64,000 nucleotides of DNA from NCBI GenBank assembly GCA_963665665.1, contig OY762428.1:3744001-3808000 (forward strand), read 5' to 3'. The DNA comes from Candidatus Kapaibacterium sp. Its GTDB lineage: Bacteria > Bacteroidota > Ignavibacteria > Kapaibacteriales > UBA2268. A model generated the notes under the pieces. The model was not told the DNA's origin, searched no databases, and saw only the letters and a list, made by a program, of their open reading frames with translations. Made by a program: the position numbers and the translations under genes. The stretch's first letter is position 1, and every line of letters begins with the position of its first letter. Below, piece after piece: positions 32,723-56,925 of this stretch.

Positions 32723-35700
32723 ATGAAGCTTTTCAAGACACTCAGTCTTCTAACGGTTTTATTTTTCATGTGCTTCGGCATATCTAAAGCCCAGTTAGGC
32801 GGTACCGTAACAGTTGGTACCGGAGGTAATTACACCTCACTTGCTACTCTATTTAGCACAATTCAGTCCAACGGACTGTCAAGCAATCTCGTTATTGAAA
32901 TTGTCAGCGACCTTAATCTTGGTACAGCCGGCGCTGAACTGAGAATGTGGACCTATGGCACTTCATATTCAGTAACAATGCGGCCTACAGGCGGCGACAG
33001 GAGAATTTACGGTTCAATATCCGGTACAAAGGGATTGATTGAACTTGCATCAGTCCACAATTTTATAATTGACGGACGTATCGACGGCACTGGTAGCGGC
33101 AGGCATCTGACGCTCGAAAACACATCTACAGGCACTTATGCTGCCCTTGTTTGGCTGCAGAGCGCTGGTTCCAACAACGGCTGCCAGGATATTACTGTTA
33201 GGAATTGTAATTTAATTGGCGGTTCCTATACTTCCAGTTATACAATTGGTATTGCAGGAACAAGCACTACATCACTTTCATCAGGCGGTTATGACCATGA
33301 TGATATCACAATTCATGATAATAGCTTTAAACGCTTGTACTACGCCATGAACATTTATGGCCAGAGTTCAACTCTGACTTATCGCAACGAAGGTATTACA
33401 GTAACTGATAATACCATTGGTTCCGAAGTCAGCTCAGACAGGGTTTACTACTATGGTATTCGTATTTACTACGGAGCTGATGTAGAAATTACCGGTAATG
33501 AAATCTTCAATTTCGGTACTACTTCAGCTTATCCTGTTTACTTGTACTATGTTGACGGGGTAATATTTAATGACAACGTAATGCATGATTTTAATAATTA
33601 TGGCGTTTATTCATATTATCTCTCGGGCGATTGTGAGTTTAACGATAATATGTTATACCAGTCAGAATTAACATCATATAATTTCTATTATGGCCTTTAT
33701 CTCAGGTTCTCATCATCAACATCATATCCTGTTGGAGATATTGAAATCAAGGATAACGATATACAGAATTGCCGTTATTATGGGTTATATGCATATTATG
33801 CAGATGATGCCGATATTTCAGGCAATCATATCCATAATTTTAATTATTCTAATTCCTACCTGGCAGGCATCTATCTCTATTATGCCGATGGCGCTGTATT
33901 GACAAAGAATAGAATTCACGACATTACCAGCACTTATTCAAGTGGTGGCGGTACTTATGGGATCTATCACTATTATAGTAATGATACGAAACTTATTGAA
34001 AACGAGATTTATGACCTGAGTAATACAGGTAACGGAACAACTTACTATTATGGTGTTCATGGTATCAGGATGTATGGTTCAGATAATACAGCCATGTATC
34101 ACAACCTGATATATCTCGACGGTGCTTTTACTGGTAGTGCAACAAGTAAATCCTCGTGTATATTCTTTTCAGGTTCAGCTATCAACGAATGTGACTTCCA
34201 GAATAATATATTCATAAACAGGATGACAGGTGGTACTGCAGAACAGTATATTTATTACCTGTATTATGGCCAGTCAGACTTCGATGAAGTTGATTACAAT
34301 GCCTATGACATGACGGGTGCTACCAATGCTTATTTTGCTTATGACGATGATATGTTCCAGTGGTATAACACACTCGAAGATTTTGCCGGATATAATGGAA
34401 ACGATGCAAACTCAACAGAACGTTACATACAGTTCAAAGCTTATGAAGACTGGCATCTTGACGGCGAAACAGCTACAGACCCGTCAATGAACTGTAATAG
34501 GAAATCAGATGTTATGACTGATATGGATGATATCGACAGGTCGCTTACAACAACTATGGGCCTTGATGAAGTAAGAATGGAAGTTGGAATGGCTTCCGGC
34601 GGTGATATCAACCAGTATGAAGAAAGAATGTGCGACGGATCATCCATAAGCTATTCATTTACAGCCGAAGTAACCGGATTTGCTGATGAGGTTCCCAGAA
34701 CTGTTCCTCCTGCAAAATTCAACTATTCATGGTTCCACAACGATGCATGGATGAATCCTGCCCTTGATCCGAACATGACAGTTGAAGACAACACAATGAC
34801 TGTTGACAACTTTGGCGAGGATTACGAAGGCTGGTACGTTGCCGTGGCTACTCTTGGCGACCTGTCAGTTACATCCAGTACTTCAACAGTTGAAATGGAA
34901 CCTCCGGCAGACTTCACAGTTGAACCGGTTGAATATGCTTCTTCTTGCGAAGACTCAGAACCGATTTACCTTAATGTTGACGCTTCCGGTATCTACGAAG
35001 GATTCCAGTGGCAGAAACAGGACGGCGAAGGCAACTGGAACGATATTGAAGGAGCCACCCGCGATGAACTGATGATCCCTGCAAATGACATTGAAAATGC
35101 AATGGGATTCTACAGGGCAAGGTTTGTAAATCCGAAATGTACTCCTGTCAGAGATTATTCAAATGCAGCAGAAGTTTTCTTCTACGAAAAAGTTAAGAAT
35201 ATTTCAGCAATGTCACCGACAAAAAATAAATTACAGCTCTGCATGGGTGCTGATGCTGAATTTATGGTTACAGCCGACGGTTATGTAACCGGTTATCAGT
35301 GGTATTTCTCTGAAGATGGTGAAAACTGGATAAAAATAAATACACGCAGAAATGAAACAGCCGGTACAGACCACCTTGTTCTTGAAGATCTCGAAGTTAT
35401 GGAATCCGGTTATTATCGCTGTGAAGTTATTGGTAATACACTTTGTAACCCGCAGTCATACCTAAGTAATGCAATTGAAATTCAGGTTTGGCCGATGTAT
35501 GACATCGTTTCACATCCTGAAGGAATGGTTGTATGCGAAGGCGAAGACGTGGAACTTAACTTCATCGGCGACGGTGTTCTCCATGCTATTCACTGGCAGA
35601 GAGACGGCGTTGACATTAACCAGGAAGACAATCCGAGCGCAGGTACTCCTCTGCTCCAGCTTCCTGAACTCAGCTATGAAACATCAGGTGTTTATCGTGC

Positions 35701-36910
35701 ACGTCTTACTATCGAAGACTGCCGCGGTATAATCGACCTTTATACAAAATCAGCTCTTGTTTATGCTCTTACTGATCCTGAGATAGTAAAACAGCCGATG
35801 ACAAAAGCTGCAAACGAAGGCAAAAGTTTATTCTTTGAAGTTCGCGCTCATGTACGCGAAGAAGGCGAACCGATTGAAAGATTCGAATACCAGTGGTATC
35901 GTGGCACAACTCCTCTTGTTGACGACGGTCGTATCGCAGGCGCTCAGTCTTCAATCCTTTCAATAACAAATGTTCTTGCAAGCGATTATGGCAACGATTA
36001 CTCGGTATTCGTTAAGGGCCAGTGCGGCGAAACACAGTCTGACGTATTCTCAATCAATGCAGGCCCGTCAATCAATATTACATTGCAGCCCGTTGATAAC
36101 TCAGAATGCGAAACAGGAAACGCTCAGTTTGTTATCGACGTTGAAGGTAACAACACAACAAGTATTGATTACCAGTGGACAAAAGACGGCGCTGACCTGA
36201 TGGATGATGCACGCATTACAGGTTCTAACTCAATGACTTTCTCAATTGCAGGCCTAATGCCTTCTGATGCCGGTACTTATAACTGTAAAGTTACTGCACA
36301 GCCCGGCGATCTGATGGCTGTAACAGACGATGCAATGATTGAAGTTAAAGACCTCCCGGTTATTACCGGACAGTCTGACGACCTGACAGTTGATGCCAGC
36401 CGTTCATTCAGTATTGAAGTTGAAGCAACAGGCTACGAACCAATGACATACCAGTGGATGCTTGACGGAAACGATATTGCAGGCGCAGTTGACGCTATGT
36501 ACAGCGTAGCATCCGCTACAGTTTCAGACGCAGGTATTTATACATGTAAAGTAATGAATGAATGCGGCGAAGTAACAAGCGCCGACATCCAGGTTACTGT
36601 AAACATGAGTGGTGTGAATGGTGTGAATGATGCAGTTGCAGGCGGATTTGTTCTTCTTGGCAATACTCCTAACCCATTCGATTTCGAAACAGAAATTTCC
36701 TTCGTAGCTCCTTACGAAGCTGACGTGAAAGTTTCTGTTACTGATATGTACGGTAAAGAAGTTGCAGTTCTATTCAACGGAATGGCAACATCAGGACTGA
36801 ACAAATTCAGCTTTAACTCCGGCGATTACAACCTAAGCTCAGGTGTTTATTACTACACAATGACAACACAGGGCTACTCTGTAACACGCAAGATGATCAT
36901 CGTTAAATAA
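32723..36910 (+). CDS. Large T9SS-secreted surface protein: parallel beta-helix repeats + tandem Ig-like domains + T9SS CTD
   Basis: Sec signal; repeated I-x-x-N-x-I / YG(I/L)Y helix turns; Ig motifs YQW...D-x-G-x-Y-x-C; C-terminal NTPNPF...GVYYY...KMIIVK. Confidence 0.85.
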   Translation: MKLFKTLSLLTVLFFMCFGISKAQLGGTVTVGTGGNYTSLATLFSTIQSNGLSSNLVIEIVSDLNLGTAGAELRMWTYGTSYSVTMRPTGGDRRIYGSISGTKGLIELASVHNFIIDGRIDGTGSGRHLTLENTSTGTYAALVWLQSAGSNNGCQDITVRNCNLIGGSYTSSYTIGIAGTSTTSLSSGGYDHDDITIHDNSFKRLYYAMNIYGQSSTLTYRNEGITVTDNTIGSEVSSDRVYYYGIRIYYGADVEITGNEIFNFGTTSAYPVYLYYVDGVIFNDNVMHDFNNYGVYSYYLSGDCEFNDNMLYQSELTSYNFYYGLYLRFSSSTSYPVGDIEIKDNDIQNCRYYGLYAYYADDADISGNHIHNFNYSNSYLAGIYLYYADGAVLTKNRIHDITSTYSSGGGTYGIYHYYSNDTKLIENEIYDLSNTGNGTTYYYGVHGIRMYGSDNTAMYHNLIYLDGAFTGSATSKSSCIFFSGSAINECDFQNNIFINRMTGGTAEQYIYYLYYGQSDFDEVDYNAYDMTGATNAYFAYDDDMFQWYNTLEDFAGYNGNDANSTERYIQFKAYEDWHLDGETATDPSMNCNRKSDVMTDMDDIDRSLTTTMGLDEVRMEVGMASGGDINQYEERMCDGSSISYSFTAEVTGFADEVPRTVPPAKFNYSWFHNDAWMNPALDPNMTVEDNTMTVDNFGEDYEGWYVAVATLGDLSVTSSTSTVEMEPPADFTVEPVEYASSCEDSEPIYLNVDASGIYEGFQWQKQDGEGNWNDIEGATRDELMIPANDIENAMGFYRARFVNPKCTPVRDYSNAAEVFFYEKVKNISAMSPTKNKLQLCMGADAEFMVTADGYVTGYQWYFSEDGENWIKINTRRNETAGTDHLVLEDLEVMESGYYRCEVIGNTLCNPQSYLSNAIEIQVWPMYDIVSHPEGMVVCEGEDVELNFIGDGVLHAIHWQRDGVDINQEDNPSAGTPLLQLPELSYETSGVYRARLTIEDCRGIIDLYTKSALVYALTDPEIVKQPMTKAANEGKSLFFEVRAHVREEGEPIERFEYQWYRGTTPLVDDGRIAGAQSSILSITNVLASDYGNDYSVFVKGQCGETQSDVFSINAGPSINITLQPVDNSECETGNAQFVIDVEGNNTTSIDYQWTKDGADLMDDARITGSNSMTFSIAGLMPSDAGTYNCKVTAQPGDLMAVTDDAMIEVKDLPVITGQSDDLTVDASRSFSIEVEATGYEPMTYQWMLDGNDIAGAVDAMYSVASATVSDAGIYTCKVMNECGEVTSADIQVTVNMSGVNGVNDAVAGGFVLLGNTPNPFDFETEISFVAPYEADVKVSVTDMYGKEVAVLFNGMATSGLNKFSFNSGDYNLSSGVYYYTMTTQGYSVTRKMIIVK

Positions 36911-41775: not shown

Positions 41776-42804
41776 ATGAAAGAAATTCAGGATTATCATA
41801 GCTTTCTTTCTGAAATAAAGAAGAAAATACGAAATGCTCAATACGAGGCATTGAAGAGTGTAAATAAATACTTGATAAGCCTGTATTGGGATATTGGGAA
41901 AATGATCGTTGAAAAACAGAATATTTCAGGCTGGGGAAAATCCGTAGTAGAAAATCTTTCCAAAGATTTGCATACGGAATTCCCTGACTTAAAGGGATTT
42001 TCGGCAAGAAACTTATGGAATATGAAAGTTTTTTATGAAGAATTTAGTTCAAATGAAATTCTGCAACCATTGGTTGCAGAAATTAGCTGGACAAAACATT
42101 TGCTAATAATGGCTAAGTGCAAGGATGTCAGGGAACGGCAATTTTATATTCTTTCCACAAAAAAATATGGCTGGTCAAAAGATGTCCTTATTCACCAAAT
42201 AGAAAACAAGTCATTTGAAAAATATATTCTTAATCAGAATAATTTTGATGAAACTTTGCCTGTTGAAATTCAAAACCAGGCAAAATTAGCGGTTAAAGAT
42301 TCCTATACTTTCGATTTTCTTGAGCTTGGAGGCCAACACTCTGAAAAAGAGCTTGAAATTGAGCTGGTTAGGAATATTCGAAAATTTCTGCTTGAAATGG
42401 GGAACAATTTTGCATTTATGGGAAATCAATTTAAAATTACTGTTGGGGATACTGATTTCTACATTGATTTGCTTCTTTACCACCGTATTTTAAATTGTCT
42501 TGTGGCAGTAGAATTAAAAGTTGGAGAGTTTAAACCTGAATTTAAAGGTAAAATGGAATTTTATCTGAATGTATTGGATGACAAAGTTAAAATTGATGCA
42601 GAAAATGATTCAATTGGCATTATTATTTGCAAGGATAAAAACCGGGCTATTGTCGAATATGCAATCAAAAACTCTAATCATCCAATAGGCGTTTCCACAT
42701 ATAGAATAACTGACAATTTGCCGGAACACTATAAAAATTTACTTCCCTCATCGGAGATTATTGCTGAAAAAATCGAGTTAATATTAAAAGAGAATGATAA
42801 ATGA
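41776..42804 (+). CDS. YhcG/DUF1016 family PD-(D/E)XK nuclease-like protein
   Basis: LYWDIG, GFSARNL, SWTKH, KDSYTFDFL, FLLEMG, IDLLLYH, VELK. Confidence 0.92.
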   Translation: MKEIQDYHSFLSEIKKKIRNAQYEALKSVNKYLISLYWDIGKMIVEKQNISGWGKSVVENLSKDLHTEFPDLKGFSARNLWNMKVFYEEFSSNEILQPLVAEISWTKHLLIMAKCKDVRERQFYILSTKKYGWSKDVLIHQIENKSFEKYILNQNNFDETLPVEIQNQAKLAVKDSYTFDFLELGGQHSEKELEIELVRNIRKFLLEMGNNFAFMGNQFKITVGDTDFYIDLLLYHRILNCLVAVELKVGEFKPEFKGKMEFYLNVLDDKVKIDAENDSIGIIICKDKNRAIVEYAIKNSNHPIGVSTYRITDNLPEHYKNLLPSSEIIAEKIELILKENDK

Positions 42805-45800
42805 AAAAAGCTATCCTTACCCTATTACTACTGCTGCCGCTTGCAGCGCAGGCGCAAAGCCTTTCGGTATTTGATATTGACACAACTGACTACCCGATAA
42901 TGCGGGCAAAGTTCTATGTATTTGATGAGAATAGAGATCAAATCATTAACCTTTCTCCCTCCGATTTTGAAATAACTGAAAATGGAGAGCAAAGGGATGT
43001 GATTAGTGTTTCCTGCCCGGAACCGAAAGAACCTGTTGCAATTTCAAGCGTACTGACGATAGACGTTTCGGGTTCTATGACGACGGGCACCAAACTTAAT
43101 ACGGCAAAGGAAGCAGGAAAAGCTTGGATAAATGGGCTGCCCCTCGGAAAATCAGAATGCGCTATTACTGCTTTTGATACAAGAAATAATATGATTCAGG
43201 ATTTTACAACTAACAGATCAAGGCTGCTTGAAAAGTTAAATATCCTTTCTGCTGGTGGCGGTACTGATTTTGATGCCGGTTTTATCAATCCAATGTCAGG
43301 AGCTTTGCTTGCCGCTGAAAAAGGAAAATATAAAAAAGTTGTTGTATTTGTAACTGATGGATTTGCAGATGGTAACGAAGTAGCAATTATCCAAAAGTCA
43401 AATGAAATCGGCGCTACAGTGTTTTGTGTTACAATTGGCTTTACTTGTCCGCTGATATTAAGGAATATTGCCGAACAAACAGGCGGAAAGTGGTTTGAAA
43501 ATATAGCAACTGTAGATCAGGCAAGGCAAACATATTTGAAAATTTTACAAATGGCACAGGGAGGTGGTCCCTGCGAAATTGAATGGGAAAGCGGGATACA
43601 TTGTAATTATAATAAAGTAATCTTTGAAGCTAAAATTCCAAAATTTATGTTAGTGTATTCCGGAAATTATCTTTCTACGATTAGTTCCATTGCAAAACTA
43701 CAATTTTCTCCTGTCGGAATTTTATTATTAAATAAACCTGTAGGTGTGCGTGCTGATACTGTGGTAACAATTACTGCGTTCAATTCTGATTTCATTGTAA
43801 GCAATATAACAAGTAATAACCCTGAATTTGAAATAAATCCCAAATCATTTTCAATTAAAGCCGGGGAAAGTAAAGAATTGATTGTAAGTTTTACACCTGT
43901 TGATGAAAGTAATAAATTTGCAAAATTTGATATGAAAAATGATCTTTGCAATATTAATTACTATTCTGCTGGCAGGCATATTGGACAGACTGAACAGCAA
44001 AAAACATTAAAACTAACACATCCCAACGGCGGAGAAGAATTCCTTGTTGGCAGAGATACAATTATAACATGGGAAGGTATTTTGCCTACCGGTACAGTAT
44101 CTTTGGATTATAGTATTAATAATGGCAAAAACTGGAATAATATCACAGACAGCGCAAGTGATTATAAGTATGTTTGGAAAAATATACCAAGTCCTGAATC
44201 TGACGAATGTCTAATAAAAATTGATCAGGATGCATATAGAGAATCTGATTCTCATCTTATTTGGAGTACTGCACCCGGTGGTCATATCAATGATATTGCT
44301 TATAACCCGGATGGCAGTAAAATCGCTTATAATATTTGGGATATTGTTTACATAGTTGATAGTAAAACAGGAAATTTATTAAGGATTCTATCTGGACATA
44401 GTGATGATGTAAAGTGTTTATCCTTCAGTCCGGACGGGAACAAAATTGCTACAGCAAGCTATGACAATACCTGCAAATTGTGGGATTTACAAAGCGGAAA
44501 AGAAATATCTACTTTAATTGGACATTCACGTGGTGTTGAATGTATAATATTCAGTCCAGACGGCAGTAAAATCGCTTCAGGGAGCTGGGACAATACAATA
44601 AAGATATGGGACTCAAACAACGGTGCAGAATTGTGTAATCTATCAGGACATAAAAGTACAATAGAAAGCTTATCATTTAGCCCCGATGGCAAACTACTGG
44701 CATCCGGAAGCAGGGACAGTACCTGCAAGATTTGGGATATTGCAAGTGGTTCAGAGATACGGACTCTAACTAAGAGCGTTGATATATTTAGTGTAGATTT
44801 CAACCCTGACGGTAGTATACTCGCTTCAGCTGGTCGGGATGGAATCAAGCTCTGGGACGTTAAAAGCGGAGTTAAGATTAGTCATGATACATCACTAATA
44901 GGGCATAAAGATGTTATACTAGACCTAATGTTTAGTCCTAACGGAAGAATGCTCGCTTCGGGTAGCAAGGACAAAACAATTAAGCTATGGGATGTAGATA
45001 GTGGAGATTTGATCCGCACTCTAATAGGACATGAATGGGGAGTATATTGCTTATCATTCAGTCCAGACGGCAGCAATATTGCTTCCGGAGGATTAGACAA
45101 AACAATAAGAATATGGGATGTTAGTAGCGGTACTGTGATTGATACATTATCAGGTCATGAAAATAATGTTAACAGTGTAAAATTCAGTCCAGATGGCAAC
45201 AAGATCGCTTCTTGCAGTGATGACAGAACAATCAAAATTTGGGATTCAAAAAGTGGTATTGAGCTTACAACATTCATTGGTTATTCTATGGCAAACGACT
45301 TATCATACAGCCCGGATGGCAGCAAGCTAGCTTCTGCCTGGGATAACAGAATACTAACGCTCTGGGATATTGAAACTGGAACGGAAATAGACACATTGAC
45401 CGGGCATAGTGGCAATGTAATAAGCGTATCGTTCAGCCCTGACGGTAGTATGATTGCTTCGGGAAGTGCTGATAAAACTATCAAGCTCTGGGACGCTTCC
45501 AACGGTACGGAAATACGCACACTGACCGGGCATAGTAGCAATGTAATGAGCGTATCGTTCAGCCCTGACGGCAGCATGATAGCCTCCTGTAGTACTGATA
45601 GTACTATCAAGCTCTGGGACGCTTCCAACGGTACGGAAATACGCACACTGACCGGGCATAGTAGTTATGTCATGAGTATATCGTTCAGCCCTGACGGTAG
45701 TATGATTGCCTCAGGTGGGGCAGACAGTACAGTTAGAGTTTGGGATGTTAATAGCGGGATGGAAATACATACACTTAAAGGTCAATCATTTATTATTTAT

Positions 45801-47372
45801 TGTGTAACTTACAGTCCCGACGGAAGCAAGATTGCTTCAGCAGGGAACAAAATGATCAAAATATGGGATGCTAATCGTGGCATTGAAATTAGTACATTGA
45901 AAGCTAATTCCATTTGTTGGACCGCTCGAAACTTATCTTTTAGTCCAGACGGCAAAATACTCGCTTCCGGAAGTGTTGATAATACTGTAAAAACCTGGAT
46001 AATTGAAGAAAATATCCTCCAATCCGATACATCTGACGCAGTTTTCTCCATCGTCGCCCCACACGCAGAAGCGCGAAGCATAGATATGGGCAGGGAGATT
46101 GTGGGCGAAGTGAAAGATTCCCTTTTTGCGGATTTTGTTGTTAATACCGGGTCGTATAAGGTAAGGATTGATTCCATATATTTCTCCGGGGCTGATGCAA
46201 ATGCTTTCGCGCAGGTTTCGGCTTTCCCTGTATATGAAATTGATGTGGATAAGGCGCAATCCACAGAGTTCAGGTTTATACCAAACCGTGTAGGTCTTCA
46301 TACTGCAAAATTGAATATAATAACACAGGCTGAAAACCTGGAATATGATATATCAGGCATTGGCGAGGAAAGAAGATTGCAGCTTGCCTGCGATATTCTC
46401 GACTTTGGTGAAGTGGAAATGGGCAATGATACTATCATTGCCGATACCGTTCTTATCAGGAATCTGACAAACCAGCAAATAGATATTACGGGCGTCAGCC
46501 AGCTCGGGCCGGATATGGAGCAGTTCAATATCATCAGCGGCGGCGGCACTTTCACACTTGCCCCGAGCGGTGAGCACAAAATGTCATTGCAGTTCATGCC
46601 TAAATACGGAGGCAGGACTTCCGGACAGCTTGGGTTTGAATACGAGGGCGCTGGAAGCCCTGCAATAGTTCAGCTATTCGGTACAGGCAAGGGCGGCCTT
46701 GTCTATGCTGCGGACGATTCAGCCTACGCCGGAGACCAGTTCAATATTAAACTCATGCTAGGAAATGTAAAACCCGAGGGCATTGCCAAACTTGCCACAG
46801 ATTACAAAGCAACTATCCGTTTCCAAAGAACACTGCTTGCCCCCTCGGGAAGCATCGACTGGCAAAGTACAGTTGATTCCATTTACATAACCATAAAAGG
46901 AAAAATCGGCAATACTGTTGAATTATCAGAAATACCGGTTATTGCCTGCCTTGGCAACACGGAGGAAACTGCAATCGATGTGGTGGAAATGAACCTTCTC
47001 GACGAGTCCGGCAATCCGATAGAATACGAATTTGAAAAACAGAGCGGAACATTCACCCTGCTCGGCATCTGCCGCGAGGGCGGCGCCAGGCTGATAAATC
47101 CTAATATCGAAGCAGGGATTATTAATATTTCACCAAATCCTGCTGAAAAAAGCCTGAATATCGAAATATCACTGATAGAAGAAGGCCAGACGGAACTTTC
47201 AATATTCAATTCATTCGGGGAATCTGTTCAGAACATATTTTCCGCAAACAACGAAACCACGGGTGCAAACAAATTTAAAGCCGACATCAGCAATCTTGCC
47301 AACGGAGTTTACTACGTTATTCTGAAAACACCCAATCAGCATTTTATCGAAAAGGTGTTGGTGATAAGGTAG
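42801..47372 (+). CDS. T9SS-secreted protein: vWA + Ig-like (choice-of-anchor D-like) + 14 WD40 repeats + Ig-like + T9SS CTD
   Basis: Signal peptide; MIDAS DVSGS, GGGT and VTDG; 14 GH...FSPDG...WD repeats; ISPNPA...GVYYV...KVLVIR tail. Confidence 0.88.
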   Translation: MKKAILTLLLLLPLAAQAQSLSVFDIDTTDYPIMRAKFYVFDENRDQIINLSPSDFEITENGEQRDVISVSCPEPKEPVAISSVLTIDVSGSMTTGTKLNTAKEAGKAWINGLPLGKSECAITAFDTRNNMIQDFTTNRSRLLEKLNILSAGGGTDFDAGFINPMSGALLAAEKGKYKKVVVFVTDGFADGNEVAIIQKSNEIGATVFCVTIGFTCPLILRNIAEQTGGKWFENIATVDQARQTYLKILQMAQGGGPCEIEWESGIHCNYNKVIFEAKIPKFMLVYSGNYLSTISSIAKLQFSPVGILLLNKPVGVRADTVVTITAFNSDFIVSNITSNNPEFEINPKSFSIKAGESKELIVSFTPVDESNKFAKFDMKNDLCNINYYSAGRHIGQTEQQKTLKLTHPNGGEEFLVGRDTIITWEGILPTGTVSLDYSINNGKNWNNITDSASDYKYVWKNIPSPESDECLIKIDQDAYRESDSHLIWSTAPGGHINDIAYNPDGSKIAYNIWDIVYIVDSKTGNLLRILSGHSDDVKCLSFSPDGNKIATASYDNTCKLWDLQSGKEISTLIGHSRGVECIIFSPDGSKIASGSWDNTIKIWDSNNGAELCNLSGHKSTIESLSFSPDGKLLASGSRDSTCKIWDIASGSEIRTLTKSVDIFSVDFNPDGSILASAGRDGIKLWDVKSGVKISHDTSLIGHKDVILDLMFSPNGRMLASGSKDKTIKLWDVDSGDLIRTLIGHEWGVYCLSFSPDGSNIASGGLDKTIRIWDVSSGTVIDTLSGHENNVNSVKFSPDGNKIASCSDDRTIKIWDSKSGIELTTFIGYSMANDLSYSPDGSKLASAWDNRILTLWDIETGTEIDTLTGHSGNVISVSFSPDGSMIASGSADKTIKLWDASNGTEIRTLTGHSSNVMSVSFSPDGSMIASCSTDSTIKLWDASNGTEIRTLTGHSSYVMSISFSPDGSMIASGGADSTVRVWDVNSGMEIHTLKGQSFIIYCVTYSPDGSKIASAGNKMIKIWDANRGIEISTLKANSICWTARNLSFSPDGKILASGSVDNTVKTWIIEENILQSDTSDAVFSIVAPHAEARSIDMGREIVGEVKDSLFADFVVNTGSYKVRIDSIYFSGADANAFAQVSAFPVYEIDVDKAQSTEFRFIPNRVGLHTAKLNIITQAENLEYDISGIGEERRLQLACDILDFGEVEMGNDTIIADTVLIRNLTNQQIDITGVSQLGPDMEQFNIISGGGTFTLAPSGEHKMSLQFMPKYGGRTSGQLGFEYEGAGSPAIVQLFGTGKGGLVYAADDSAYAGDQFNIKLMLGNVKPEGIAKLATDYKATIRFQRTLLAPSGSIDWQSTVDSIYITIKGKIGNTVELSEIPVIACLGNTEETAIDVVEMNLLDESGNPIEYEFEKQSGTFTLLGICREGGARLINPNIEAGIINISPNPAEKSLNIEISLIEEGQTELSIFNSFGESVQNIFSANNETTGANKFKADISNLANGVYYVILKTPNQHFIEKVLVIR
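45397..45712 (+). repeat. Intragenic 126-bp tandem repeat (three near-identical WD40 units)
   Basis: TGACCGGGCATAGT at 45397, 45523 and 45649; 62-bp exact identity between 45477-45538 and 45603-45664. Confidence 0.92.
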
Positions 47373-53308: not shown

Positions 53309-53348
53309 AAAAAGAAAAGATCTTCCAGGGGCTTGCCCGGAAGATCTG
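53309..53348 (-). terminator. Terminator of the Rieske/cytochrome operon
   Basis: AGATCTTCC...GGAAGATCT stem; minus strand continues TTTCTTTTT. Confidence 0.7.
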
Positions 53349-53375: not shown

Positions 53376-53870
53376 TTAAAAATATATTTCCAGAAGGCCT
53401 GTACCGGCATCAAACTTACTCGGGAATTCTTTTAGCGCTTTTTCGGCGGGGCCTTTGATTGGATTTCCGTGGTCAAATGGATCGAACCTGGAGCCGTGGC
53501 AGTAGCATACAATATCGGTGCGCCCCGGTCGCGGCAGACGTAAGTCGTCGCCGAAGCAGTTGGCGTGAGTGCAAAGCGAGGAGAAACATGCAAAAGCATC
53601 ATCGGCAATACGAACGATTATTATCGGGATTCCAAAGTTTACATGAGTCCATCTTTGAATCACAGACCCTCCAATCCGGGCCAGTGTTTCTTCGGGGTTT
53701 GTATCGAATTCCACCATTCCGCCGGTCAGTCCCTGGTTCTTCTCCCTGTCGAACTCGCAGGAAACCAGTCCGCTGACGGCTGCAACAGTTGCCGGGCAAA
53801 GGCCAAGCAATGCCAGGCCTTTTTTCATAAAATCCCTTCTCTCATCCGATAAAGTTTTATCTCTTTCCAT
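53376..53870 (-). CDS. Tat-exported Rieske [2Fe-2S] lipoprotein
   Basis: ERRDFMKK twin-arginine signal, LVSC lipobox, CTHANC...CYCHGSRF cluster motifs, GPA. Confidence 0.88.
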   Translation of the reverse strand: MERDKTLSDERRDFMKKGLALLGLCPATVAAVSGLVSCEFDREKNQGLTGGMVEFDTNPEETLARIGGSVIQRWTHVNFGIPIIIVRIADDAFACFSSLCTHANCFGDDLRLPRPGRTDIVCYCHGSRFDPFDHGNPIKGPAEKALKEFPSKFDAGTGLLEIYF

Positions 53871-54652
53871 TACCTGCTTACCGCCATTTTCTTAGTTCTC
53901 TTTCTGCCGTCCGCTGTTTCCAGACTAATAATATAAGCGCCAACCTGCAATCCAGAAACGTTAATATCAATATCATAGTTTCCGGAATCAACAAATTTAT
54001 TGCTGAAAACGGTTAAAACCTGATTCCCGATTGAATCGTAAACTTTCAGGGAATATTGTCCGGGAAGTTCCACGCCATAGCCGACGGATGTTGTGTTGCT
54101 GCACGGGTTGGGATAGTTTTGCCGGAGATAAAGCAATCCTTCGCTTTCGTCTTCAATACCAACAAGAACTGCGGGAATATCAAGATACAGGCTGTCGCCG
54201 CCATTCCATCGAACTTCAAATGTCTGCAGGTCTTCGGCTGCAGGCCCGTCCACATAAGTGCCGTCGGCTTTAAAAATTGTGCCGTGGCCGGAGCATTCAA
54301 ACTCGTGGTAAATATCAAGGTCGTAAACCGATTCACCTTCGTGCGGGCACAATGTATAAATGCAGGAATAGTGTTTGCCGTATTCTTCGTAATCAAGTTT
54401 GGTGACGATAATTGGTGCAAAAAAACCATCAGTGATATCGTTTGGAATTTGTATCCTGACAGATCCCCAGACTTCCTTTAGTTCGGGATAATCTTTCAGG
54501 CTGATGTGGTATGTACCCATTATTTCATCTTTATTCTTTTTAAGCGAAGGAGTAACTACTCCTTTCAATATGTGCGGGCAGGCAGGAGTAAATATACTGA
54601 TAGCCAGCATATTTTTCAGGAACTGCCTTCTGCGATTGCTGATGTTTTTCAT
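53870..54652 (-). CDS. Tat-signal Rieske [2Fe-2S] protein with T9SS C-terminal sorting domain
   Basis: NRRRQFLK; CPH-x15-CSGH; GPA; tail QNYPNP...LKVYD..G...GAYII...TKKMAVSR. Confidence 0.85.
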   Translation of the reverse strand: MKNISNRRRQFLKNMLAISIFTPACPHILKGVVTPSLKKNKDEIMGTYHISLKDYPELKEVWGSVRIQIPNDITDGFFAPIIVTKLDYEEYGKHYSCIYTLCPHEGESVYDLDIYHEFECSGHGTIFKADGTYVDGPAAEDLQTFEVRWNGGDSLYLDIPAVLVGIEDESEGLLYLRQNYPNPCSNTTSVGYGVELPGQYSLKVYDSIGNQVLTVFSNKFVDSGNYDIDINVSGLQVGAYIISLETADGRKRTKKMAVSR

Positions 54653-54672: not shown

Positions 54673-55743
54673 TCAAAAATTATCTGTTGGTTTTTTAAAT
54701 TTCTTATTTGCAAGGAACTCGTGGTCAGTAAGTGATTTCAGGAAAGCAACCAGGTCTGCTTTTTCCTGTTCGGTCAGGTTCAGGGGCCTCATCAGCGGGT
54801 CGCGATTGAAGAAGGGCTTCCCGCCCCTGTTATAATGGTTAATAACGTCTTCGAGTGTTTCAAGGTCTCCGTTGTGATAGTAGGGCGCTGTCATTTCAAT
54901 ATTTCTGAGCGTGGGGGTGATAAATACTCCCCAGTCCTTGAAATTCATTGTTTTATAATACCTGCCTTTATCAAAATAATGTGTTGTAACACCGGTATTA
55001 TGGAATTTCATATCTGTAAAGAATATTCCCGAATGGCACTGCGAGCAGTTGGTTTTAGTAGTATCAAAGTACAGTTTCATCCCGCGTATTTCGGATTCGT
55101 TCAGAGCGGCCAGGTCTCCGCGCCTGTATTTGTCATAATCAGAGTTGCCGGAGATAAGAGTTCTTACAAATGTTGAAATTGCCAGGGATACATTAGTTGC
55201 CGTCGGTTTTGCCCCTTTGCCGAAAGCTTTTTCGAACATGGAGGGATAAAGCGGATGTTCGGACAACCTTTTTTCAATTTCATTGGTATCGGCGCCCAGA
55301 ATTTGGTTCAGCCAGAGGCTTCTGTAGGCAGGCCCTTCAATTCTTCTGCCACGTCCGTCCCAGAAAAGCTTATCCCTGTAGGCAGCATTTATCAGGCACA
55401 TGGCATTTCGCGGTTCCGGTTCAAGCTCATTTGCCCTGCTCACAGGTGTGCAGTCCGAGAAAGAATACTCAGGCTTCATACAATGAGAGCAGGATGGCAG
55501 ATTCATGTCGCGGGAAAGCAGTTTTTCATAAAAAAGCCTTCGGCCAAGTTCAGCTTTTTCCTTTGTAATTGGATTGTATTCCGGTTGTGGAACGGGCGGA
55601 AAATCTTCCGGTACAGTCAAAAAGCCTTCTTTCTTTTCAGTTTCCGACTCAACAATGGAGGAGCATGAAAAAGATGAAAGAAGAGCCGTAAGAATTATGA
55701 GAATAGAAAATTTATATATTAGAATCGATTTATTACTGTTCAT
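54673..55743 (-). CDS. Diheme cytochrome c peroxidase/MauG/MbnH-family lipoprotein with atypical first heme motif
   Basis: FSC lipobox; LGRRLFYE..LS; CSHCM; FWDGR; CSQCH; TPTLRNI..TAPYYHNG. Confidence 0.88.
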   Translation of the reverse strand: MNSNKSILIYKFSILIILTALLSSFSCSSIVESETEKKEGFLTVPEDFPPVPQPEYNPITKEKAELGRRLFYEKLLSRDMNLPSCSHCMKPEYSFSDCTPVSRANELEPEPRNAMCLINAAYRDKLFWDGRGRRIEGPAYRSLWLNQILGADTNEIEKRLSEHPLYPSMFEKAFGKGAKPTATNVSLAISTFVRTLISGNSDYDKYRRGDLAALNESEIRGMKLYFDTTKTNCSQCHSGIFFTDMKFHNTGVTTHYFDKGRYYKTMNFKDWGVFITPTLRNIEMTAPYYHNGDLETLEDVINHYNRGGKPFFNRDPLMRPLNLTEQEKADLVAFLKSLTDHEFLANKKFKKPTDNF

Positions 55744-55955
55744 TTCGTTCACCCGGCAGTTATTATTATTCCAGAGTAAATATATTCATTAACCTAATCA
55801 AAAAATGTTCATTTCCAAAGCAATACTTTTATCGCTAAAAGTAATGTTTAGCTTTCTTTCCTGTTAATAATAACAAATGTAATTAAAGAAAATTACAATT
55901 GAAATATTTTTATTAATTTATAATCCAGTTTTGTGTAATTAACAATATAAAAGAT

Positions 55956-56495
55956 ATGAAAAGCTTTAATAAGATCATAATGCTTGTTTTTGTGGCAATG
56001 GCGCTTTTGGCAGCCTGCGATGATAATGATACGGTGGAAAGAGCCGAATACGTTACTATGGATGAATTACTAAAATTACCCGGTTACGAGTGGGTAACCT
56101 ACGAAATGAAAGACTATTCCCCCGATCCTGTAATGGTTTCGGATATTGCCGAGGCTTTTGATATCAACCGGCACAGATTTCTTTTCTTCCTGAAGCCCGG
56201 ATGTACCTGCATCGATCCTGAAGTTCCGCTGGCATGGATGTTTAAAACCCTTGATGAAGCTGATATCAGTGATTTTTACAGGGAAATCTATATTATGAAG
56301 GATAAAGATATCGAGCATCCCTATCAGGACAATTTTCAGTTGAACCGTGTGTCATCATATTTGCTTATGGATATGACAGATACAACTGTAATTCTATCAC
56401 TCAGGGATACAATCGATCAGATAATATTTTACTCTCCTGACAGCCTTAAGTATTTGAATATTGAAGAATTGGTTCTTCACGCTCTTCAAAAATAA
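55956..56495 (+). CDS. Lipoprotein, possibly thioredoxin-like fold
   Basis: LLAAC lipobox; FLFFLKPGCTCID at the position of a Trx active site. Confidence 0.5.
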   Translation: MKSFNKIIMLVFVAMALLAACDDNDTVERAEYVTMDELLKLPGYEWVTYEMKDYSPDPVMVSDIAEAFDINRHRFLFFLKPGCTCIDPEVPLAWMFKTLDEADISDFYREIYIMKDKDIEHPYQDNFQLNRVSSYLLMDMTDTTVILSLRDTIDQIIFYSPDSLKYLNIEELVLHALQK

Positions 56496-56517
56496 GTTTC
56501 ATGTTTCGGATAATGTT

Positions 56518-56925
56518 ATGAAGCATTGGTTAGTAAAATCAGATCCCGACAGTTATGGCTGGGAGGAAATGAAAAGAGACAGAAAAACCGATTGGGACGG
56601 GGTAAGAAATTATCAGGCAAGAAATAACCTGAAAGAAATGAAAAAAGGCGACAAAGTACTTTTCTACCACAGTGTTAAAGATAAAACCGTTGTTGGTGTT
56701 ACAGAAGTTAGCAGGGAGTTTTACCAGGATCCCACAACGGATGATGAAAGATGGGTGGCCGTAGAGCTAACGTTTTCGGAAGAGTTTAAAAATGAAGTAA
56801 GCCTGAAAGATATTAAAGGGCGGGCCTCTTTATCTGAAATTGCTCTGATCAGGCAGTCAAGATTATCGGTTATGCCCTTAACAAAGAAAGAATTTACAGA
56901 GGTATGTAAGATGGGTGGTATATAA
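56518..56925 (+). CDS. EVE domain protein
   Basis: HWLVKSDP, WDGVRNYQARN, GDKVLFYHS, RLSVMP. Confidence 0.93.
   Translation: MKHWLVKSDPDSYGWEEMKRDRKTDWDGVRNYQARNNLKEMKKGDKVLFYHSVKDKTVVGVTEVSREFYQDPTTDDERWVAVELTFSEEFKNEVSLKDIKGRASLSEIALIRQSRLSVMPLTKKEFTEVCKMGGI

Follow-up and report, generated by a model that had tools for sequence, protein, structure and literature searches.

The window, by which we mean the whole 64,000-nucleotide stretch of DNA analysed here, carries on its minus strand an intact open reading frame (ORF; 54673-55752) for a cytochrome whose first heme motif lacks the histidine (His). Downstream of it, at a distance of 20 bases, lies a Rieske protein gene (R1) and then a second one (R2), which overlaps R1 by one base. 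The genes and features discussed below are:

54673..55752, minus: His-less MbnH-like di-domain cytochrome, 359 aa from GTG, PF03150
55477..55491, minus: site-1 motif C88-S-H90-C91-M92 (clade consensus C-x-H-C-[M/L/F/K])
55399..55410, minus: R115-N116-A-M118, with Asn116, presumably of the Ca site, and Met118 at the Pro of CcP RNxP
55351..55365, minus: FWDGR, with the inter-heme Trp131 and Arg134
55300..55332, minus: rebuilt distal segment P141-A-Y143-R144-S145...I151, in place of Gln/Pro/Glu
55033..55047, minus: canonical site-2 motif CSQCH, residues 236-240
54970..54981, minus: H258-Y-F-D261 loop, common to His-less proteins and tandem paralogues, rare elsewhere
54832..54876, minus: H293-N-G-x11-Y307, with Tyr307 as the MauG Tyr294-type axial ligand of heme 2
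53870..54652, minus: R1, Rieske protein with a twin-arginine signal, no disulfide Cys and a T9SS C-terminal sorting domain (PF00355 and PF18962)
53376..53870, minus: R2, Rieske Tat lipoprotein with a disulfide pair (CxHxxC / CxCH; PF00355)
53318..53347, minus: terminator-like 12-bp hairpin and T run, closing the three-gene unit
55956..56495, plus: divergent thioredoxin-like lipoprotein with an invariant C-x-C (C83/C85)

The initial annotation, which spanned 54800..55491, had placed the motif correctly but did not take in the first 87 residues of the protein or the other genes of the operon; all of its statements about the sequence were correct. An ATG start at 55743 would give 356 aa. The protein is of the Sec lipoprotein type, with Cys30 conserved at at least 90%. 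The hairpin is a consensus match only, 6 having been found against 3.5 in shuffles.

The cytochrome scored 128.6 bits with PF03150 (CCP_MauG), above the gathering cut-off of 25.6, and an Atlas search with a homologue returned CCP_MauG clusters only. The top sequence match was MbnH (E-value 1e-40; profile 3e-69). An AlphaFold2 model (pLDDT 90.3, from a 59-row alignment) has the bCcP two-domain fold, and the structure closest to it, also first in Foldseek, was MbnH 6e1c (Z 36.3, rmsd 1.9 Å over 313 residues). The score was below the cut-off both for TIGR03791 (MauG; 173 bits vs. 443.85) and for TIGR04039 (MbnH; 241 vs. 362.85), the latter being a weak test because L046, a canonical and MbnP-linked relative, also falls below the cut-off at 269. 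The CCP_MauG superfamily is described as defined by two CxxCH motifs (PMC11892367); the 359-aa protein has CSHCM and CSQCH. With MbnH and MauG it shares a His/Tyr heme 2 and the inter-heme Trp (H240, Y307 and W131), residues of MbnH being compared by alignments only. It has P141, S145 and I151 instead of the distal triad of MbnH, MauG, BthA and bCcP, and Tyr307 at the Met position of the canonical bCcP His/Met electron-transfer heme. On the tested features, the protein has the MbnH/MauG fold and is neither MbnH, MauG nor a canonical bCcP.

Site 1 across the clade

The codons at 55491-55477 read TGC TCT CAT TGT ATG, which confirms CSHCM as the first heme motif, and ATG differs from CAT and CAC at all three positions, as had been pointed out. 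A homologue search gave 1878 matches. Among the best 120 of 1878, after 4 incomplete rows were set aside, the motif His was absent in 85 of 116 rows (the query and 115 homologues). A larger alignment of 333 rows was built from 110 ORFs of more than 280 aa from the loci described below and stored proteins of 280–520 aa; exact duplicates were removed and other lengths dropped, and the same gene is possibly present twice via different starts. It contains 102 rows without the His, all of which read C-x-H-C, and residue 92 is Met in 68 of them, Leu in 27, Phe in 4 and Lys in 3. The His-less heme motif was absent from 148 further representatives (P0122-P0269), and neither a His-less protein nor a Rieske domain was found in the best 120 of 589 longer homologues (8000 candidates scored).

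The records of the His-less rows are labelled Kapabacteria/Kapaibacterium, Ignavibacteria, Bacteroidetes/Chlorobi group, 'uncultured Hyphomicrobiales' and, in one case, unclassified. The Hyphomicrobiales label (L008-L012, L016, L019, L021-L024 and L030) is probably wrong, because these records have Kapabacteria-like synteny and T9SS-tailed genes in common with Kapabacteria. Among the homologues P0275-P0387, many MbnH-like domains are fused to parallel beta-helix domains (the named ones are from Chloroflexota and Armatimonadota), several of these fusions having CAHCH at site 1, and further homologues are fusions of two CCP units in tandem.

The initial annotation had proposed counting homologues with CxxCM, and had named simple decay of this copy as one finding that would overturn its reading. 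Such decay was not found, the loss of the His being clade-wide (102 of 333 rows). Across 26 His-less genes the motif codons vary synonymously, and dN/dS was 0.07–0.14 in the only 3 unsaturated pairs, 2 of which include a divergent CSHCK copy; the other pairs were saturated. Because the 102 rows are intact, the motif codons vary synonymously, dN/dS lies in this range and the operon is conserved, a sequencing error or a decaying copy can practically be dismissed as the source of CSHCM. Judged from these genes, the non-canonical site 1 is a conserved clade trait under selection.

Residue 92 itself has changed 13 times on the His-less tree, at least 12 of the changes being between Met and non-Met. 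Identity between Met92 and Leu92 orthologues reaches 89%, and none of their other site residues differ; since Met and Leu are swapped between such close orthologues, these comparisons indicate that Met92 is not an iron ligand. Heme 1 had been described as Met-ligated or otherwise non-canonical; the site is non-canonical, but Met92 as its ligand does not hold, Met being present in only 68 of 102 rows.

C88, H90 and C91 are found in 102/102 His-less rows, S89 in 98% and D155-T156 in 100%, and only four cysteines are conserved. The His90 column is Ser/Thr in 90% of 200 outgroup rows. Since CxHCH is seen in canonical relatives, a His at position 90 can go together with a canonical heme motif, and CxHCH would be a plausible intermediate toward the His-less motif. 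Met118 occupies the place of the Pro in CcP RNxP, a motif that lies beside the proximal His. It occurs in 101/102 His-less rows (99%; missing in P0080), in ~3% or less of His-bearing paralogues, and together with His92 in 28% of outgroup rows; in the clade member P0089, His is back at 92 (CSHCH) and Met118 is absent. Met118 is thus a candidate replacement proximal ligand, or else a filler. The initial annotation had overlooked His90 and Met118, as well as the possible absence of heme 1. Gly113 is replaced by Glu, Gln or Met in His-less proteins.

Distal pocket, second heme and tandem paralogues

After W131/FWDGR, the alignments to the CcPs of P. aeruginosa (1eb7) and P. nautica (1nml) are ungapped and set P141, S145 and I151 on the CcP Gln, Pro and Glu, in agreement with the Pro, Ser and Ile read there before. 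These columns hold Q in 94%, P in 81% and E in 94% of the 200 outgroup rows, and in bCcP, MauG and BthA the three residues are described as conserved and as required for binding peroxide (PMC6405878). A142-Y143-R144-S145 is kept at 95–98% in His-less rows. In the alignments Tyr-Arg-Ser 143–145 appear, along with His90 and Met118, as fixed new residues. The bridging Trp is kept, as had been stated: W131 maps to MauG Trp93 and is present in 100% of His-less rows, with R134 in 93%. Altogether R115, R134, R283 and W131, which we take to have the heme-propionate and relay roles of CcP and MauG, are kept at 93–100%. The summed side-chain volume of 20 presumed pocket positions, a weak comparison in which the positions were chosen by analogy, is 2997 Å3 in His-less proteins, 3013 Å3 in His-bearing paralogues and 2884 Å3 in the outgroup; the closeness of the first two values gives no sign of a filled site-1 cavity.

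The second motif, CSQCH at residues 236-240 (55047-55033), is canonical as previously noted, and C236, C239, H240 and Y307 are present in 120/120 rows (best 120 of 1878). Y307 of HNG-x11-Y falls on MauG Tyr294 by the end-offset of the match (122-309 vs. 84-296), which bears out the MauG-type Tyr ligand, and aligns to Met275 of 1nml, the C-terminal Met of the matched stretch and presumably an axial heme ligand. The H258-Y-F-D261 loop is possibly a partner-binding surface.

In a FastTree analysis of 248 of the 333 rows, a 133-row group with 99% local support comprised the 102 His-less and 31 CxxCH proteins, many of the latter being tandem paralogues of His-less genes. This group has lost the distal Gln and Pro and mostly also the Glu. 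In 12 loci the tandem partners have an identity of 0.58–1.00 in domain 2 and 0.28–0.53 in domain 1, and this homogenisation of one domain and divergence of the other therefore suggest gene conversion of an electron wire and divergence of a site. Within the same loci, the mean identity of domain 1 is 0.68 among His-less proteins vs. 0.53 among their His-bearing paralogues. Unconstrained trees (whole-length, 248 of 333 rows; quick domain-1, 82 rows) nest the paralogues within the His-less group, with 3 His-state changes. Multiple regains of the His are nevertheless disfavoured, because domain 2 is gene-converted and a domain-1 tree constrained to keep the His-less proteins and P0089 together was 23.6 lnL better (p-AU 0.81). 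One loss and one regain would be the simplest reading; monophyly is unproven.

Several other features of these genes were observed. Domain-restricted gene conversion is seen in L012:9944-12147, L004:9947-12149 and 10 other tandem pairs, domain 2 of L012 being 100% identical. His-bearing paralogues (L002:3946-4944, L004:11094-12149 and L001:8928-9959) have rebuilt distal pockets of their own, with Met/Ala at the Gln position and Asp at the Pro position, or Ile/Val, and are therefore also unlikely to be peroxidases. The CSHCK members (L021:10004-11050, P0086 and P0087) no longer have Arg134 and Arg144, and their domain 1 is diverging rapidly; L021, which shares its assembly with L008, is a second copy there and is without Rieske neighbours.

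Conserved neighbours

We surveyed 81 loci, namely the window and the best 80 of 592 matches, of which 26 are His-less and 55 are others; 3 of the 26 end inside the gene and 23 have downstream DNA. Among the matches listed, R1 was found in 19/26 His-less loci (19/23 with downstream DNA) and R1 or the Rieske pair in 1/55 others, R2 was found in 17/26, and 4 evaluable His-less loci had no Rieske neighbour. A tandem CxxCH paralogue was present in 12/26 His-less loci, and the thioredoxin-like gene in 11/26 vs. 1/55 others, again among the matches listed. MbnP, identified through a cluster defined from 2 members, adjoined the gene in 0/26 His-less loci vs. 39/55 others among the matches listed; it is reported to be the substrate partner of MbnH (PMC3621798, PMC11892367).

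The disulfide Cys are missing in 20/20 R1 proteins, which have RR-type signals in 20/20, and both extra Cys are present in 18/18 R2 proteins. The presence or absence of the Rieske disulfide relates to redox potential, and the pair suggests one low- and one high-potential carrier. Tat signal and T9SS domain occur together in R1 of the window (53870-54652, minus), in L001:11071-11844 and in 18 more loci, with a conserved P-H-x-L-L-G after the hydrophobic part of the signal; there are 27 full-length R1 relatives, the window's own included. R1 may be a surface-exported iron-sulfur protein. In the cytochrome, only 27/97 sequences have at least 2 acidic residues as an acidic lipoprotein export signal, and surface exposure by way of such a signal is unsupported. 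A complex prediction of the cytochrome with two hemes and R1 gave 0.13, 0.39 and 0.00 in its runs (mark 0.32), and no contacts were reported. Elsewhere in the window, two large secreted proteins with T9SS-like tails were recognised by eye (42801-47372, plus, and 32723-36910, plus), one VWA-like with WD40 repeats and one with beta-helix/Ig repeats.

The CxC lipoprotein looks thioredoxin-like only by the Atlas features of a homologue (thioredoxin-family clusters at 0.90–0.91); it had no match in Pfam, NCBIfam or PDB by sequence or profile, and its single-sequence fold prediction had a pLDDT of 32. With the EVE-domain gene that follows it (55956-56925, plus), it forms a pair syntenic with the cytochrome in several loci. 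The flanking genes in the window encode the Rieske, thioredoxin-like, EVE and histidine kinase proteins, and there is no mau operon context. In L004:13521-13898 and 6 more loci among the matches listed, R2 is directly followed by a small cytochrome, also a lipoprotein, whose heme motif is CX4CH (CGLSYCH) and which has a weak Pfam PSCyt1 match below the cut-off. A WWD regular expression for heme-handling genes hit 1/26 His-less loci, a CcmC 9 kb away, and none in the window; CcmC in L025 represents System I in the lineage. No copper transporter or MbnP was found among the conserved neighbours.

Possible roles and relation to known systems

The cytochrome is a real, conserved variant within the bCcP/MauG superfamily that has a non-canonical site 1 and an operon of its own; the selection on this site and the iron-sulfur carriers beside the gene point to a redox site of an undescribed kind. 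Peroxide chemistry is unlikely, because the distal Gln/Pro/Glu and the MbnP substrate partner are gone; together with the Rieske neighbours, this agrees with the earlier suggestion of electron transfer rather than peroxidase activity. The opposite distributions of R1 and MbnP among the matches listed make it probable that the protein is part of a Rieske-coupled redox module in which heme 2 is the conduit, although 4 evaluable His-less loci have no Rieske neighbour. An MbnH-derived extracytoplasmic lipoprotein no longer activating peroxide would be the heme core of this module. Its domain 2, with a normal c-type His/Tyr heme, the Ca site and Trp131, would conduct electrons and exchange them with R1 (disulfide-free, ferredoxin-type) and/or R2 (disulfide, bc-type). 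In domain 1, a heme would be tied via C88/C91 without a proximal His, residue 92 serving in hydrophobic packing and the iron being bound by Met118, or by solvent or substrate only, inside a pocket that is hydrophobic (P141, S145, I151, F/L152) and has gained a Tyr-Arg. Speculatively, His90 might take over from the missing His while the heme is being attached, or might bind a partner. Domain 1 would then be the specialised site and domain 2 an interchangeable wire.

That site 1 of such a non-peroxidase module keeps a Cys-linked heme without proximal His is the reading we favour, tentatively and with doubt slightly outweighing confidence. It is consistent with the invariance of C88, H90 and C91, the tighter conservation of domain 1 than in tandem paralogues, the retained arginines and Trp131, a pocket no fuller than in the paralogues (a weak comparison) and the His revertant P0089 within the clade. 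Heme alpha-I of hydrazine synthase offers a precedent in which the motif His is described as not being the ligand, although that His is still present there (PMC12607021). On the other hand, cytochrome b562 variants with CXXCM, CXXCK or CXXCR are reported not to have been matured by E. coli Ccm (PMC4158909), rare motifs are described as using dedicated synthases (PMC10663686), and in this System I lineage a heme-handling gene was seen in 1/26 neighbourhoods among the matches listed. Met118 as ligand is weakened by its occurrence with His92 in the outgroup and its absence in P0080. The main rival, given the reported failure of Ccm on CxxCM and its need for the motif His (PMC4158909, PMC10663686), is a heme-free site 1: a monoheme His/Tyr cytochrome in which C88-C91 form a structural or redox CxHC disulfide serviced by the thioredoxin-like lipoprotein, and in which heme 2 still provides the link to the Rieske proteins. 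We give this a real, if minor, chance. It fits the lack of a dedicated synthase nearby, the CxC gene in 11/26 loci among the matches listed, the replacement of Gly113 and a hydrophobic filler at position 92. The CxHC motif also resembles the active sites of DsbA and PDI. However, the presumed pocket is no fuller than that of the His-bearing paralogues, the arginines and Trp131 persist, domain 1 is more tightly constrained than in the paralogues, and the thioredoxin-like gene is missing from 15/26 loci among the matches listed. C88 and C91 presumably also lie far from heme 2 in the bCcP-type fold, which would leave a redox disulfide with poor wiring.

Conversion of site 1 into a non-heme Cu or Zn site of C88, H90, C91 and M118 is improbable. 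These four residues are fixed together, and Cu(I) typically has such a Cys/His/Met set, but His90 also occurs in canonical CxHCH proteins and the conserved neighbours include no copper transporter or MbnP. In favour of a metal, the parent MbnH/MbnP family is described as tied to copper (PMC3621798, PMC11892367) and the motif His of hydrazine synthase as binding Zn (PMC12607021). An attached heme 1 with Met92 as proximal ligand, the version of the initial annotation, is very unlikely: Met is the commonest residue at 92 (68/102), but Leu or Phe takes its place in 31/102, the Met/non-Met changes number at least 12, and M and L orthologues 89% identical share the other site residues. Still less credible is a peroxide-using enzyme (a peroxidase or Trp-modifying oxidase) with an unusual site. 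The His/Tyr heme 2, Trp131 and Ca site, parts used for bis-Fe(IV), are intact, but all of the distal Gln/Pro/Glu, described as needed (PMC6405878), are lost, as is the proximal His, and there is no MbnP or mau partner. The favoured reading of a retained heme 1 can be extended to a family with c-type heme on C-x-H-C and no proximal His or Lys, in which an internal His satisfies the maturase, the heme is Met118-bound or free of protein ligands, and a new catalytic site is supplied across the cell envelope by a Tat-then-T9SS Rieske protein, a bc-type Rieske lipoprotein and a His/Tyr heme; such an undescribed Kapabacteria envelope redox enzyme is possible but rather doubtful.

In c-type heme attachment the motif His counts as indispensable, the exception being CxxCK, which has a synthase of its own, and a natural His-less clade is a direct test of this rule. 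Controls are built in, in the form of orthologues with Met, Leu, Phe or Lys, the CSHCH revertant and the His-bearing tandem paralogues, whose domain 2 is nearly identical. Either outcome, a covalent heme without the His or a disulfide or metal site in place of the heme site, would be new for the bCcP/MauG superfamily. Annotation by counting CxxCH overlooks such proteins or mislabels them as 'cytochrome c peroxidase'. The operon also hints at a Tat and T9SS Rieske protein, hence at envelope electron transfer in a lineage known here from MAGs only. No description of the clade or operon was found in the full-text literature searched, which covered few subscription journals and no supplements; clade members could be present in supplementary sequence networks, for example in that of PMC6405878.

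Among known systems, the nearest precedent for a covalent heme whose proximal ligand is not the motif His is heme alpha-I of hydrazine synthase, described as Tyr-ligated with the motif His kept and on Zn (PMC12607021). The CxxCK heme of NrfA is likewise covalent with a ligand other than the motif His, the Lys being described as the ligand and the synthase as dedicated (PMC10663686); unlike NrfA, the His-less family has a fifth residue that is usually non-coordinating or interchangeable, and no synthase adjoins the gene. A survey of non-canonical heme motifs lists CXCK, CX2CK, CX3CH, CX4CH, CX11CH, CX15CH and CX17CH, none of them free of both His and Lys (PMC11492766). MauG and BthA resemble the protein in fold (Z about 28 and 26) and in the Tyr294-type ligand, and MauG also in the Trp93-type residue, which BthA is described as lacking (PMC6405878); in contrast to both, the protein has no distal triad, no adjoining mau genes and CxHC(M/L/F/K) at site 1. 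MbnH (6e1c; TIGR04039), the top match, and its MbnP-linked Bacteroidota homologues share the His/Tyr heme 2 and inter-heme Trp, whereas the His-less family is without the site-1 proximal His, Gln/Pro/Glu and MbnP, and its loci, among the matches listed, carry Rieske partners instead. Canonical CcPs (CcpA, MacA and YhjA) share PF03150 and the two-domain fold (Z 22–31), but have Met rather than Tyr on heme 2, the catalytic Glu/Gln and the site-1 His. The iodate reductase cluster IdrABP1P2 comprises a Rieske subunit and two CcP-like proteins. By gene composition alone, the pairing of Rieske and CcP-like proteins is similar, 12/26 His-less loci among the matches listed having a tandem paralogue; unlike IdrABP1P2, the window unit, three genes between a divergent gene and the terminator-like hairpin, has no molybdopterin subunit of the IdrA type and encodes two Rieske proteins, one of them with a T9SS tail.
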